From Planctomycetia bacterium (GTDB lineage: Bacteria; Planctomycetota; Planctomycetia; Pirellulales; JALHLM01): a DNA stretch of 64,000 bases. A program made the position numbers and the translations under genes. Numbering within the stretch: the stretch's first letter is position 1; each line of letters starts with the position of its first letter. The notes below the pieces were generated by a model. It was not told the origin of the DNA and searched no databases. It saw only the letters and a list, made by a program, of their open reading frames with translations. Positions 28,177-31,677 of this stretch are shown here, piece after piece. Location of the stretch: the NCBI GenBank assembly GCA_034440135.1, contig JAWXBP010000181.1, positions 1 to 64,000 of the forward strand. The letters are read 5' to 3'.

Positions 28177-31100
28177 ATGGCAACTGTCCGACGCGGAGAT
28201 CAAACGACCGTGCATCGCAATGAGTTTCCGGGCTCGTTCTTCGGGCCGCCCACGCTGGTTGATCTGTTGCGGCATCGTGCGGCGTTTCAGCCCAACGCAC
28301 GGGTCTACACGTTTTTGGCGGATGGCGAGACGCAGGAAATCCACCTGACGTACGGCGAACTGGACCGGCAGGCCCGGGCCATCGCGGCCACGTTGCAAGC
28401 GGAAGGCCTGGCGGGGCAGCGCGCGCTGTTGCTCTTTCCGGCTGGCCTGGAATTCGTCGCCGCCTTTTTCGGTTGCCTCTACGCGGGCGTCGTGGCCGTG
28501 CCGGCCTATCCGCCGCGGTTGAATCGCACGATGTGGCGCATTCAGTCGATCGCGGCCGATGCGGAAGCGCCCGTCGCCTTGATGTCCCGCGCGGTACTGG
28601 ATCGTGTGCAGCCGCTGTTGGAACAATCTCCCGAATTGAAACAACTCAGTTGGGTGGCCACGGACGAGATTCCGTTGAGCGCCGCCGACGCCTGGTATCC
28701 GCCGGAAGTGACGGGGCAATCCCTGGCCTTCCTGCAGTACACGTCCGGGTCGACGGGAAACCCGAAAGGAGTGATGCTCAGCCATCACAACCTGTTGCAC
28801 AATTGCGCGCTCATCGCGCATGCGTTTGAGATCGCGCGCTCCGGCAAAGGCATCTTTTGGCTGCCGAGCTACCACGACATGGGGCTGATCGGCGGCATTC
28901 TGCAGCCGTTGTATGTGGACTGCCCGAATGTACTGATGTCGCCGATGTCGTTCTTGCAGCGTCCTTATCGCTGGTTGGACGCCATCAGCCGGCACCGCGG
29001 CACAACGAGCGGCGGTCCGAACTTCGCTTATGAGTTGTGCATCGAACGGATCACGCCGGAGCAACGCAAAGGGCTCGACTTGAGCAGTTGGACCGTGGCC
29101 TTTAACGGCGCGGAGCCGGTCCGGGCGGAGACGCTGGAAAGGTTCGCGGAGATGTTCGAGCCGTGCGGCTTCCGGCGCGAGGCGTTCTATGCCTGCTATG
29201 GTCTCGCCGAGGCGACGCTGTTAGTGGCCGGCAGCTACAAGCTCGATGCACCGGTGATGCGCACCTTCGACGCCCGCGGCCTGGAGAGCGGCTCTGCCGT
29301 GCAAGTGCCGCACGACAGCACGGATGGGCGCTTGCTGGTCGGGTGCGGTCGGAACTTACCGGATCAAGCCATCGTGATCGCTGATCCGCAGACGATGACC
29401 ACTTGCCCGCCGGATCATGTGGGTGAGATTTGGGTCAAGGGACCGAGCGTAGCGCAAGGCTATTGGAAGCGTCCTGAAGAATCGCAAACTACGTTCGGCG
29501 CCCGCCTGGCGGACACGCAGGACGGCCCGTTCTTGCGCACAGGAGACCTGGGCTTCATCGACGACGGCGAAATTTACGTCACCGGTCGATTGAAGGACAT
29601 GATCATCATCCGGGGCGTCAACTATTATCCTCAGGATATCGAGCTGACGGCCGAGCGAAGCCACGACGGCATGCGCGTGGGGCACTCGGCGGCGTTCAGC
29701 GTGGAAGAAGACGGTCGCGAGAAGCTGGTCGTGGTCGCCGAGATCGAACGGCGCGAACAGTCGCGCCCCGAGCCGGTGCTCGAAGCCGTGCGCCGCGAAA
29801 TCAGCCGGGAACACGAGTTGAATCTCGACGCGCTCGTGTTGATCAAGGCCGGCAGCATTCCGAAAACCTCCAGCGGCAAGATTCAACGCCACGCCTGCCG
29901 CAACGAATTCCTGGCCGGCAGCCTGACGGTAGTCGCCGAATGGCGCGACGAGTCCGGCGTGGAGTTGCCCGAGCAGCCCACGCGAGAGGTGGCCCGCGCG
30001 AAGCGCGTCCGCGATGTGTTGACCGTGATGGACAATCAATCCTCGCTCCGCACGCCAGTGGCGCCGCCCGCGACCAATGGGCATCCGATCAAGGCCCCGG
30101 AAAAGATCGAGGAAGCGCCCGCCACGACGGTCGACATTGCCGCGCAAGTGCTGGAACAAGTGCGCAAGGTCGCCAAGGAACGGGCCAAGAACCTGACCTT
30201 GGATTCCTCGATCACGGAGTTGGGCCTCGATTCGCTGGAACGCTTGGAGATCCTGGGCAACCTGGAAGACTTTTTCGGCGGACGTTTCCCCGAGTCGATT
30301 CTGCCGGAACTGGAGACGTGCCGGCAGGTGATCGACGCCGTGGAAAAGCACTTGGGCGACGAGCGCGAAACCGATCGCGTACGCCCCGAAGCGGCGGAGA
30401 TTCCCGAAGATCAGTACCGCTTCGACAAAATGCCGGACTACGTCAAGCTGCGTCAGAACATCGAGATGCTCGACGCCGCTGGATTGAATCCGTTTTTCGC
30501 GGTCCATCAACGCGTGACGAACGACACGACGTTGATCGACGGGCGGGAGCTGATCAATTTCTCCAGCTACAACTACCTCGGGATGTCCGGCGACAGCGAA
30601 GTGGCGCAGGCCGCCAAGGACGCCATCGAACGTTACGGCACCTCGGTCTCCGCCAGTCGCTTGGTCTCCGGCGAAAAGAAACTGCACCGTGATTTGGAAC
30701 GCGCCATCGCCGATTTTATCGGGGCCGAAGACGCGATTTGCTACGTCGGCGGGCACAGCACGAATGAAAGCACCGTCGGCCACCTATTCGGCGCCGGTGA
30801 CTTGATCCTGCATGATTCGCTCGCGCACAACAGTATCATTCAAGGCGCAATCCTTTCCGGAGCACGGCGACGTCCGTTCCCGCACAACGACTGGAAGGCG
30901 CTCGACGCCATCCTGACCGACATTCGCCGCGACTATCGCCGCGTGCTGGTCGCCATCGAAGGCGTCTACAGCATGGACGGCGATATTCCGGACCTGCCGA
31001 AGTTCATCGAAGTAAAGAAGCGCCACAAGGCGATCCTGATGGTCGACGAGGCGCATTCGGCCGGCGTGTTGGGTCCGCACGGCCGCGGCATCGGCGAACA

Positions 31101-31677
31101 TTTCGATCTCAACTCCGAAGACGTCGATCTCTGGATGGGCACGCTCAGCAAGTCGTTTGGCAGTTGCGGCGGTTACATCGCCGGTTGCCGCGCGGTCGTC
31201 GAGTATCTCAAGTTCACGGCGCCGGGCTTCGTCTACAGCGTCGGCATGTCGCCGCCGAATGCGGCGGCGGCGCTGGCGTCGTTGCAGATTCTCGAATCGG
31301 AACCGGAACGGGTCGGCCGGCTGCAGGACAACTCGCGACTGTTCCTCACGTTGGCAAAAAGCCGAGGGTTGAACACCGGCACCAGCAAGGATTCCCCGGT
31401 AGTGCCCGTGATCCTCGGGAACTCGATGCATTGCCTGCAGCTTTCCAAGGCGCTGCATCACCGCGGCATTAATGTGCAGCCGATTCTCTACCCGGCCGTG
31501 GAAGAACGGGCGGCGCGGCTGCGGTTCTTCATCACGTCCTGCCATACAGAAAAGCAGATTCGCCACACCGTCGACGTCGTGGCGGAAGAGCTGGCCCAAA
31601 TCAGCAAGCACTACGTGGCGAACGCGACGGAACACGCGCCGGCGCCAAGCGAAGTTGGCGCTACGATGCGGCGGTAG
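28177..31677 (+). CDS. tri-domain fatty acyl-AMP ligase (FAAL) - acyl carrier protein - alpha-oxoamine synthase (PLP; AONS/serine-palmitoyltransferase family)
   Basis: FAAL: LQYTSGSTGNPKGVMLSHHNLL and YRTGDLGF. ACP: LDSSITELGLDSLERLEIL (Ser attachment site). AOS: SYNYLGMS ... GTLSKSFGSCGGYIAG (PLP Lys). 1166 aa. Confidence 0.85.
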   Translation: MATVRRGDQTTVHRNEFPGSFFGPPTLVDLLRHRAAFQPNARVYTFLADGETQEIHLTYGELDRQARAIAATLQAEGLAGQRALLLFPAGLEFVAAFFGCLYAGVVAVPAYPPRLNRTMWRIQSIAADAEAPVALMSRAVLDRVQPLLEQSPELKQLSWVATDEIPLSAADAWYPPEVTGQSLAFLQYTSGSTGNPKGVMLSHHNLLHNCALIAHAFEIARSGKGIFWLPSYHDMGLIGGILQPLYVDCPNVLMSPMSFLQRPYRWLDAISRHRGTTSGGPNFAYELCIERITPEQRKGLDLSSWTVAFNGAEPVRAETLERFAEMFEPCGFRREAFYACYGLAEATLLVAGSYKLDAPVMRTFDARGLESGSAVQVPHDSTDGRLLVGCGRNLPDQAIVIADPQTMTTCPPDHVGEIWVKGPSVAQGYWKRPEESQTTFGARLADTQDGPFLRTGDLGFIDDGEIYVTGRLKDMIIIRGVNYYPQDIELTAERSHDGMRVGHSAAFSVEEDGREKLVVVAEIERREQSRPEPVLEAVRREISREHELNLDALVLIKAGSIPKTSSGKIQRHACRNEFLAGSLTVVAEWRDESGVELPEQPTREVARAKRVRDVLTVMDNQSSLRTPVAPPATNGHPIKAPEKIEEAPATTVDIAAQVLEQVRKVAKERAKNLTLDSSITELGLDSLERLEILGNLEDFFGGRFPESILPELETCRQVIDAVEKHLGDERETDRVRPEAAEIPEDQYRFDKMPDYVKLRQNIEMLDAAGLNPFFAVHQRVTNDTTLIDGRELINFSSYNYLGMSGDSEVAQAAKDAIERYGTSVSASRLVSGEKKLHRDLERAIADFIGAEDAICYVGGHSTNESTVGHLFGAGDLILHDSLAHNSIIQGAILSGARRRPFPHNDWKALDAILTDIRRDYRRVLVAIEGVYSMDGDIPDLPKFIEVKKRHKAILMVDEAHSAGVLGPHGRGIGEHFDLNSEDVDLWMGTLSKSFGSCGGYIAGCRAVVEYLKFTAPGFVYSVGMSPPNAAAALASLQILESEPERVGRLQDNSRLFLTLAKSRGLNTGTSKDSPVVPVILGNSMHCLQLSKALHHRGINVQPILYPAVEERAARLRFFITSCHTEKQIRHTVDVVAEELAQISKHYVANATEHAPAPSEVGATMRR

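Follow-up and report, generated by a model that had tools for sequence, protein, structure and literature searches.

A fused fatty acyl-AMP ligase, carrier and alpha-oxoamine synthase of Planctomycetia: a candidate synthase for the first intermediate of ceramide-type lipids

What would a bacterium make with a fatty acid-activating enzyme, a carrier domain and an amino acid-condensing enzyme joined in a single polypeptide? The question is raised by a gene located at positions 28177–31677 (plus strand) of contig JAWXBP010000181.1, from the assembly GCA_034440135.1 of a Planctomycetia bacterium of the Pirellulales. The first 64,000 nucleotides of this contig were analysed and are called the window. 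The gene encodes a fusion of a fatty acyl-AMP ligase (FAAL), a carrier domain of the acyl carrier protein (ACP) type and a pyridoxal phosphate (PLP)-dependent alpha-oxoamine synthase (AOS). From its sequence and those of its relatives, we consider it moderately probable that the gene encodes a self-contained enzyme making the first committed intermediate on the way to a ceramide-type (sphingolipid-like) lipid. It would most likely deliver a 3-keto long-chain base to the synthesis of such lipids, because orthologous fusions adjoin homologues of the N-acyltransferases YghO and CC_1154, and the Legionella and cyanobacterial loci add a short-chain dehydrogenase/reductase (SDR) and head-group enzymes.

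Domain organization of the fusion gene

The gene is one intact open reading frame (ORF) of 1166 aa, with an ATG start and a TAG stop. The orthologues have their N-termini at Val12 of the window protein, a GTG codon at 28210, so that the true start may be this GTG, 11 codons after the ATG. The features of the gene are the following:

28177..31677, plus strand: whole ORF of the FAAL-carrier-AOS fusion, with the alternative GTG start at 28210
28252..29946, plus strand: fatty acyl-AMP ligase domain, residues 26–590, assigned by motifs and FAAL matches
29236..29355, plus strand: FAAL-specific insertion, about residues 354–393, located by MAFFT alignment and absent from the acyl-CoA ligase FadD
29947..30126, plus strand: linker 1, residues 591–650, hypervariable and disordered
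30127..30351, plus strand: carrier (ACP-type) domain, residues 651–725, with the phosphopantetheine Ser686 (nt 30232–30234) in GLDS
30442..31596, plus strand: PLP-dependent AOS domain, residues 756–1140, with the Schiff-base Lys992 (nt 31150–31152)

Pfam assigns AMP-binding to residues 32–430 (E=1e-68), the FAAL C-terminal subdomain to 474–585, PP-binding to 657–721 (32.9 bits, with a cutoff of 20.8) and Aminotran_1_2 to 791–1134 (E=3e-52). These hits, together with the intact catalytic residues, confirm the three domains (adenylation, carrier and AOS) that a sequence-only reading of this DNA had proposed. The motifs quoted there were found as SGSTGNPKG at residues 190–198, GLDS with Ser686 and TLSKSFG with Lys992; the one given as YRTGD is actually FLRTGD (453–457). 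Strong purifying selection acts on all three domains, the ratio of non-synonymous to synonymous substitution rates (dN/dS) against the two closest relatives (82% protein identity) being 0.08–0.13 for the FAAL, 0.07–0.08 for the carrier and 0.05–0.06 for the AOS domain. As judged from the sequence, the three-domain gene is real and looks functional, and a chance pattern is ruled out.

The core motifs of the FAAL domain, SGSTGNPKG (nt 28744–28770), LRTGD (453–457) and PKTSSGK (562–568), make up the complete set of the ANL superfamily. The top matches of the activating domain in NCBIfam and the Protein Data Bank (PDB) are all FAALs, with scores below the full-length curated NCBIfam cutoffs (e.g. 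476 of 775). The best PDB match is 7r7e, with 656 bits and 53.5% identity from end to end over 561 aligned positions; this structure is the loading FAAL domain of a polyketide synthase (PKS) of Picosynechococcus sp. PCC 7002, whose substrate is listed as unknown in a 2025 review of FAALs. In the MAFFT alignment, about 29 extra residues relative to E. coli FadD are located at 354–393 and are common to the window protein, 7r7e and the Legionella homologue. The PKS of PCC 7002 that holds 7r7e is presumably the olefin synthase that loads C18 acids. For the window protein, acyl transfer to the carrier rather than to coenzyme A (CoA) is predicted.

An AlphaFold2 model of the monomer, built on 42 orthologues, presents a confident FAAL fold, a disordered stretch at 593–651 (pLDDT <50), a helical bundle at 651–726 and an AOS fold. 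The linker at 591–650 has a non-synonymous divergence of 0.38–0.68 from the two closest relatives, with synonymous sites saturated. The carrier helices are modelled at 651–670, 686–700, 706–711 and 715–726, and Gly683, Asp685 and Ser686 are invariant in the 42 orthologues. In the AOS domain, the catalytic residues match those of the serine palmitoyltransferase (SPT) of Sphingobacterium (SmSPT): Lys992 corresponds to K244, His884 to H138, Asp957 to D210 and His960 to H213, and further equivalents are Ser932 (S185), Thr989 (T241), Ser991 (S243) and Arg1116 (R367). Four AOS segments have low confidence in the monomer model (769–803, 823–832, 1016–1022 and 1106–1111), and they coincide with the SYNYLG motif, the Ser825–Ser827 loop, the stretch 1019–1022 and the PAVEE loop. 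In SmSPT, some residues of the equivalent segments are assigned to the partner subunit, e.g. Gly80, Ser81 and Met271 (PMC10196870), and the low confidence would fit a need for AOS dimerisation.

The route that we propose would begin at the FAAL domain, where a free long-chain fatty acid (chain length probably near C14–C18) would react with ATP to form an acyl-AMP, while the FAAL-specific insertion would block transfer to CoA. After priming of Ser686 by a separate phosphopantetheinyl transferase, absent from the window, the acyl group would pass to the phosphopantetheine thiol on this residue of the same chain. The AOS domain, an obligate homodimer in this scheme, would bind an amino acid, most likely L-serine, on PLP-Lys992, and a decarboxylative Claisen condensation with the acyl-S-carrier would release a 2-amino-3-keto long-chain base of the 3-ketosphinganine type. 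An N-acyltransferase of the YghO/CC_1154 type, encoded elsewhere in the genome, would then add the second acyl chain, and a putative reductase would reduce the 3-keto group; the resulting dihydroceramide-like lipid would probably be destined for the cell envelope. The FAAL insertion and the complete AOS catalytic set are consistent with the earlier suggestion that a long-chain alpha-amino ketone is made directly from a free fatty acid.

Orthologous loci, relatives of the AOS domain and the probable product

The biosynthesis of dihydroceramide in Caulobacter takes five genes, aasR (acyl-ACP synthetase), acpR, spt, cerR and cerS (CC_1154, N-acyltransferase), whose equivalents in E. coli BL21 are ECD_02851–02854 and yghO (PMC9386255, PMC11324152, PMC11087976). 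In the BL21 locus, the order is yghO, a gene annotated 'fatty acyl-AMP ligase' (aasR), a gene of the epimerase/dehydratase family, an acyl carrier protein gene, spt, lptG and lptF. ORFs were called in 47 full-length loci of the fusion and the neighbours were clustered. A 390-aa gene of the GNAT fold adjoins the fusion, at a median distance of 58 bp, in two planctomycete loci (L002 and L003) and in 4/5 Legionella loci. The planctomycete and Legionella copies of its product are full-length YghO homologues (35% identity over 365–382 aa, E=1e-75 to 1e-82); a 385-aa protein encoded in the spt gene region of Roseomonas mucosa is a further homologue.

This CerS-like adjacency occurs in four planctomycete contigs (L002, L003, L104 and L106), which carry fusion orthologues at 61–66% identity. 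Besides L002 and L003, the other two of these four, which are large contigs, present the order PIG-L (minus strand), fusion (plus), CerS-like (minus) and BBP7 (minus). In the 213-kb contig of L105/L106, the block formed by these four genes is followed by LptF/G and LpxB, and L003 is arranged likewise. A gene of the LptF/G family is thus near the fusion in L003 and L105/L106; it also neighbours spt in E. coli BL21, is present in the spt region of Roseomonas, and has been reported for the Caulobacter sphingolipid cluster (PMC11324152). A gene of the planctomycete-specific BBP7 type (putative beta-barrel porin) is present within about 700 bp of the fusion in 19–21 of 34 planctomycete loci, the Pfam assignment being solid in L103/L104 and weak elsewhere. 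The whole block (PIG-L, fusion, CerS-like, BBP7, LptF/G and LpxB) suggests an outer-membrane lipid module, none of whose partners is in the window. In Planctomycetia, the YghO/CerS-like protein is found about as widely as the fusion: of the best 120 clusters, no fewer than 118 have 52% identity or more to the L003 protein. In a second tree, all 13 of the 13 planctomycete fusions, including that of the window and the CerS-adjacent ones, were grouped together in a single clade with a bootstrap of 57/100. Since the Legionella copies branch as a subclade of their own, the CerS linkage is present in two branches of the family.

An SDR is encoded within a few kb of the fusion in 5/5 Legionella loci, 4/5 cyanobacterial loci and one planctomycete locus. 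SDR305 has no significant similarity to the proteobacterial CerR, and they are therefore different reductase families. In Legionella wadsworthii (L056, 1–21000), the fusion is preceded by an ABC/HlyD/OEP exporter, a GT4 glycosyltransferase, a polysaccharide deacetylase and the YghO/CerS-like GNAT gene, and it is followed by DUF5630, PAP2, a CDP-alcohol phosphatidyltransferase, an SDR, GT2 and GT4. This locus, and also L058 and L064, apparently represent an undescribed sphingolipid-like cluster in non-pneumophila Legionella. The cyanobacterial loci of Okeania (L046) and Baaleninema PCC 7105 (L047), at 13300–20000, present the fusion, a sulfotransferase, an SDR, an acyl-CoA dehydrogenase-like gene, an SBF-family transporter and an alpha/beta hydrolase, a gene content that hints at a sulfated amino-alcohol lipid.

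E. coli K-12 (L100, 9044–11341) has an intact yghO of 390 aa abutting an IS5 element. Since BL21 (L102, 4283–9886) carries the full yghO/aasR-epi-acpR-spt cluster at the same place, K-12 appears to keep a remnant of the sphingolipid locus.

The relatives of the AOS domain bear on the product from another side. Among solved structures, SmSPT (251 bits) and human SPTLC2 (238) scored highest, followed by Thermus BioF/KBL (228), E. coli KBL (216) and E. coli BioF (166). Among the AOS-family models of NCBIfam, the top score was that of bioF (TIGR00858), with 356 bits, and homologues carry the label '8-amino-7-oxononanoate synthase' (AONS) in the automatic annotation of JGI. Could the gene then be a biotin enzyme similar to BioWF, which would make 8-amino-7-oxononanoate from activated pimelate and alanine? 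Proteins that join an acid-activating enzyme to AONS do occur naturally (PMC9544090). The 356 bits are, however, under the bioF cutoff of 426, as the scores for KBL (310 of 460) and ALAS (244 of 338) are under theirs. The AOS domain has 30–35% identity to three BioF references and does not group with them, it is missing the VPxG loop present in all BioF, KBL and ALAS references, and its activating partner is a long-chain FAAL rather than BioW. No bio genes were found beside any of the 47 loci. The identity as BioF was rejected on the curated cutoff, the tree placement, the loop motif and the gene context, and a role in biotin synthesis is considered highly improbable.

An exhaustive HMMER search with the AOS domain alone, over 1.8 billion representative proteins, revealed that the 150 nearest AOS clusters (44–71% identity) for the most part form the C-terminal portion of far larger proteins. 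By Pfam on a sample and a seed-based classification of all 150, about 97 are linked to PKS and the short FAAL-(ACP)-AOS form occurs in about 23; the architectures seen include KS-AT-KR-AOS, KS-AT-DH-ER-KR-ACP-AOS and FAAL-KS-AT-AOS (KS, ketosynthase; AT, acyltransferase; KR, ketoreductase; DH, dehydratase; ER, enoylreductase). The top-scoring AOS relative (P0121, 1741 aa) has the order ACP-KS-…-AOS-AOS, a tandem AOS pair on a PKS-like protein. A neighbour-joining tree was built with three BioF, four KBL or BioF/KBL, ALAS, SmSPT and human SPTLC2 as references, together with a Bacteroides plasmid AOS, the Roseomonas Spt and a Streptomyces cluster AOS. The window AOS and the PKS-associated family formed one clade (bootstrap 178/200, and 87/100 in the second tree), whose sister was unstable, either the Streptomyces cluster AOS or, weakly, SPTLC2. 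The phylogeny proposed as a check in the sequence-only reading thus did not reveal a tight clustering with BioF, in accordance with the identity and TIGR00858 values given above.

This clade has a signature of its own, Tyr798 in 145 and His860 in 138 of 157 family members. Tyr798 replaces an Asn present in all bacterial SPT, BioF, KBL and ALAS references, and human SPTLC2 also has Tyr; His860 stands where the references have Phe, Tyr or Trp. Such a distinct clade, apart from all reference SPTs, is one reason to ask whether the substrate is L-alanine, glycine or another amino acid in place of serine. The product would then be a 1-deoxy-type, headless long-chain amino-ketone, perhaps N-acylated to a 1-deoxyceramide-like lipid. 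Related AOS domains can be promiscuous, as the BioF domain of CaBioWF takes Ala, Ser and Gly (PMC9544090), abundant bacterial 1-deoxyceramides, some of them sulfated, have been reported from the Black Sea (PMC11334938), and a sulfotransferase adjoins the cyanobacterial homologues. On the other hand, the mobile loop before Arg1116 (P1106-A-V-E-E) resembles the PAVP/PATP of SPTs, and this P-A-V loop and the SYNYLG motif are closer to SPTs, including human SPTLC2, than to BioF/KBL. The glycosyltransferases and the CDP-alcohol phosphatidyltransferase of the Legionella loci are most simply explained by a C1-hydroxyl. Neither point is decisive, and the use of another amino acid is judged unlikely, with serine the preferred substrate.

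The origin of the domains also bears on a third proposal, that of a specialised metabolite or signal in place of a membrane lipid, either an alpha-hydroxyketone precursor of the CAI-1/LAI-1 type or an amino-ketone dimerising to an alkylpyrazine. Both the FAAL and the AOS domain are closest to domains of polyketide assembly lines, and radical-SAM, PKS/nonribosomal peptide synthetase or tailoring genes adjoin the delta-proteobacterial and some cyanobacterial homologues (e.g. a radical-SAM/SPASM gene immediately downstream in the delta-proteobacterial locus L041). Against this stand the conservation of the gene across families of Planctomycetia at 52–87% identity, the lack of recognisable tailoring genes within 10 kb in most loci and the linkage to CerS, to outer-membrane-type BBP7 proteins and to LptF/G. 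Similarity to CqsA is very low, with 77 bits to the structure 2wk8 and 156 bits, of a cutoff of 428, to the CqsA/LqsA model NF005526, so that the domain falls outside the autoinducer synthases of that model. A specialised role is consequently regarded as quite improbable. The product had earlier been described as "sphingoid-like or signalling"; the first term is clearly favoured over the second, because orthologues adjoin a YghO/CerS-type N-acyltransferase and the similarity to CqsA is so low.

Several observations weigh against a ceramide-type product and explain why we hold it with moderate confidence. In the window, the neighbouring genes (aquaporin, Cu-ATPase and a transporter of the major facilitator superfamily, MFS) are unrelated and none of them recurs beside the gene, even in the 82% relatives; no homologues of CerS, CerR/epimerase or SDR305 were found in the 64 kb. 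CerS adjacency was observed in just 4 of about 36 planctomycete loci, and no reductase has been identified for Planctomycetes. All SPT cutoffs of NCBIfam were missed (327 of 640 for the CFB type, 274 of 500 for the beta type and 227 of 670 for the alpha type), and the AOS domain lies outside the reference SPTs, in the PKS-associated clade. This clade is PKS-derived and its members may use other amino acids, so that the substrate might differ from serine; in addition, Asn52 of SmSPT is Tyr798 in the window protein. SmSPT recognises serine mainly via the PLP phosphate and ordered waters (PMC10196870), and because recognition is mostly water-mediated the sequence cannot settle the amino-acid substrate; a sequence-based call of specificity was dropped for this reason. 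Within a limited literature reach, no report of ceramides in cultured Pirellulales was found. The literature likewise returned no experimental work on any member of the fusion family, and the term "uncharacterised" in the sequence-only reading appears to hold as regards biochemical studies of its members.

The same reading had called the architecture "rare", which does not agree with its distribution. The best 120 matches to the full protein all share the three-domain architecture (1123–1243 aa, 61–100% identity), which gives at least 120 clusters, and where the source names give a taxon, it is always Pirellulales, Planctomycetia or similar. In a scan of one genome per species, full-length planctomycete copies at 52–82% identity were present in Pirellulales, Thermoguttaceae, Planctomycetaceae, Lacipirellulaceae, Bythopirellula and Pirellula, the closest named genome being an uncultured Pirellulales metagenome-assembled genome (MAG). 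Beyond this class, the scan revealed full-length copies at 44–52% identity in Cyanobacteria, among them Nostoc linckia, Baaleninema simplex PCC 7105 and Okeania. MAGs of delta-proteobacteria and Desulfobulbaceae have copies at about 50%, and Legionella wadsworthii, L. bozemanae and L. resiliens at 38–40%.

A survey from 2013 already lists an 'A-CP-PLP (AOS)' architecture for Blastopirellula marina A3ZWL3 and Microscilla marina A1ZVW4, with substrate, product and pathway all given as '?' (PMC3870968). Judged from the listed architecture and its lineage, the B. marina protein is very probably an orthologue. A literature search for FAAL combined with AONS or oxoamine synthase returned nothing, and the 2025 FAAL review makes no mention of PLP or AOS fusions. 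The fusion architecture had thus been catalogued before, and the present reading is a well-supported prediction of sphingolipid-type synthesis across Planctomycetia rather than a categorically new system.

As a wider and tentative proposal, which we rate as possible but somewhat doubtful, Pirellulales and related Planctomycetia would make ceramide-type sphingolipids as a conserved part of their envelope, by a fusion of PKS parts that arose independently of AasR/AcpR/Spt, followed by a YghO-type ceramide synthase, and coupled to BBP7 and LptF/G-like genes. By extension, the large family of PKS-AOS proteins of the same AOS clade would make 'polyketide sphingoid bases' in many phyla, those of Legionella and Cyanobacteria among them.

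Upstream region and other features of the window

The window is a housekeeping region that encodes PanC, a class II ribonucleotide reductase, LipA, UbiD, PyrC, the aquaporin, the fusion, the Cu-ATPase and the MFS transporter, among others. An operon with the downstream Cu-ATPase was rejected, since this neighbour is conserved in no relative; there is no clear terminator or promoter signal either way. Upstream of the fusion, two features were located:

27885..27947, plus strand: conserved upstream block, with a promoter-like TTGGCA-17 nt-GAAAAT at 27897–27925 from a consensus scan
28024..28092, plus strand: upstream ORF of 22 codons, MKDLNRERPRFRRGICPAIVRR, in the conserved leader, 85 nt before the ATG

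The DNA sequence of the leader (27885–28092) is preserved in L001 and L018, the two closest relatives, despite different flanking genes. The start (MK[D/E].NR) and the TGA stop of the upstream ORF are at aligned positions in both, and its length is 20–22 codons. The region is possibly a leader peptide or an RNA regulatory element; an Rfam scan of the entire window gave no hits.

A near-perfect palindrome of about 240 bp is located at 27568–27805, between the divergent aquaporin gene and the fusion gene. Its outer arms (27568–27607 and 27766–27805) are 83% complementary, and the RNA fold has -107 kcal/mol (z = -9.7). The palindrome is absent from the closest relatives, and a partial copy (75% over 110 bp) is present at 26659–26765, beyond the aquaporin gene. 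This copy suggests an element similar to a miniature inverted-repeat transposable element, or else an inserted aquaporin gene with repeats on both sides.

At 4 kb from the fusion, a ceramidase-like ORF (35749–37125, minus strand, 458 aa) matches the N-terminal part of the neutral/alkaline ceramidase. It scores 50 bits in Pfam, with a cutoff of 32, and 25 bits to the P. aeruginosa structure 2zws, and it keeps the motif THTHxxP. As a pathway partner it was rejected, given the weak match to 2zws and its absence near all 46 other loci; because it is not a conserved neighbour, its proximity may be coincidental.

The only other PLP enzyme of the window is a second Aminotran_1_2 ORF (62945–63979, minus strand), which was rejected as a bioF. 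It encodes an LL-diaminopimelate aminotransferase (DapL) cut by the window edge, with 556 bits of a cutoff of 585 over profile positions 66–409 of 410. Elsewhere in the window there are two PEP-CTERM proteins (50615–51367 and 58743–59990), a PEMT-like ORF of the phospholipid methyltransferase family (51402–52217) and an 829-aa HerA-like ATPase (37138–39627). None of these four ORFs is linked to the fusion in other loci.

Comparison with known systems

If the proposed reading is true, Planctomycetia, an abundant environmental class whose envelope composition is debated, would be predicted sphingolipid producers with a compact route from free fatty acids. The fusion would offer a genetic handle for the 'Spt-like' genes counted in 138 Planctomycetota MAGs of the Black Sea (2024), would represent a second, independent evolutionary build of the module that links fatty acid, carrier and sphingoid base, and would point to uncharacterised sphingolipid-like clusters in Legionella and Cyanobacteria. 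Such a soluble enzyme, making a long-chain amino-ketone from a fatty acid, ATP and an amino acid on a single chain, would also be an attractive biocatalyst. The prediction is directly testable, since the cultured species Blastopirellula marina is listed as a carrier of the architecture.

The closest functional parallel is the set AasR, AcpR and Spt, characterised in Caulobacter crescentus and E. coli BL21 (PMC9386255, PMC11324152), which presents the three activities predicted for the fusion, in the same order. The fusion domains are homologous to each of these proteins. The FAAL domain has 36% identity to the BL21 AasR over 575 aa (E=3e-89), the AOS domain 32% to Spt over 369 aa (E=7e-57), and the carrier a weak match to AcpR, 31% over 48 aa (E=4e-5), which was its sole match among eight BL21 cluster proteins. 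In some genomes, the fusion also has the same downstream partner family, the YghO/CC_1154 CerS, and a gene of the LptF/G family nearby. They differ in that the fusion is one polypeptide rather than three proteins, and its FAAL and AOS domains are much nearer to the loading and release domains of PKS (53% and 50–70% identity, respectively). In addition, no epimerase/dehydratase of the CerR type was found, any reductase that is linked to the fusion is a classical SDR, and the fusion gene of the window stands alone.

The second parallel is the chain-terminating AOS of type I PKS (e.g. KS-AT-KR-ACP-AOS), whose AOS domains belong to the same clade as that of the fusion and likewise have the carrier in the same chain. 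This AOS chain-release logic is used by RedL in prodiginine and by SxtA in saxitoxin biosynthesis. Unlike the PKS proteins, the fusion is without the extension module of KS, AT and KR, and the fatty acid would be condensed directly; its gene is conserved in a housekeeping-like manner and located outside any biosynthetic gene cluster.

The third parallel is BioWF, known from Corynebacterium amycolatum and Desulfosporosinus; no further natural protein that joins acid activation to an AOS was found in the literature. As is predicted for the fusion described here, one protein couples the ATP-dependent activation of an acid to AOS condensation and yields amino-ketones from free acids and amino acids (PMC9544090). 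BioWF differs in its BioW-type activation of C6–C10 acids, in the use of a diffusible acyl-CoA with no carrier and in its role in biotin synthesis (PMC9544090), whereas the planctomycete protein is predicted to hold a long-chain acyl group on its own carrier for the synthesis of a lipid base.

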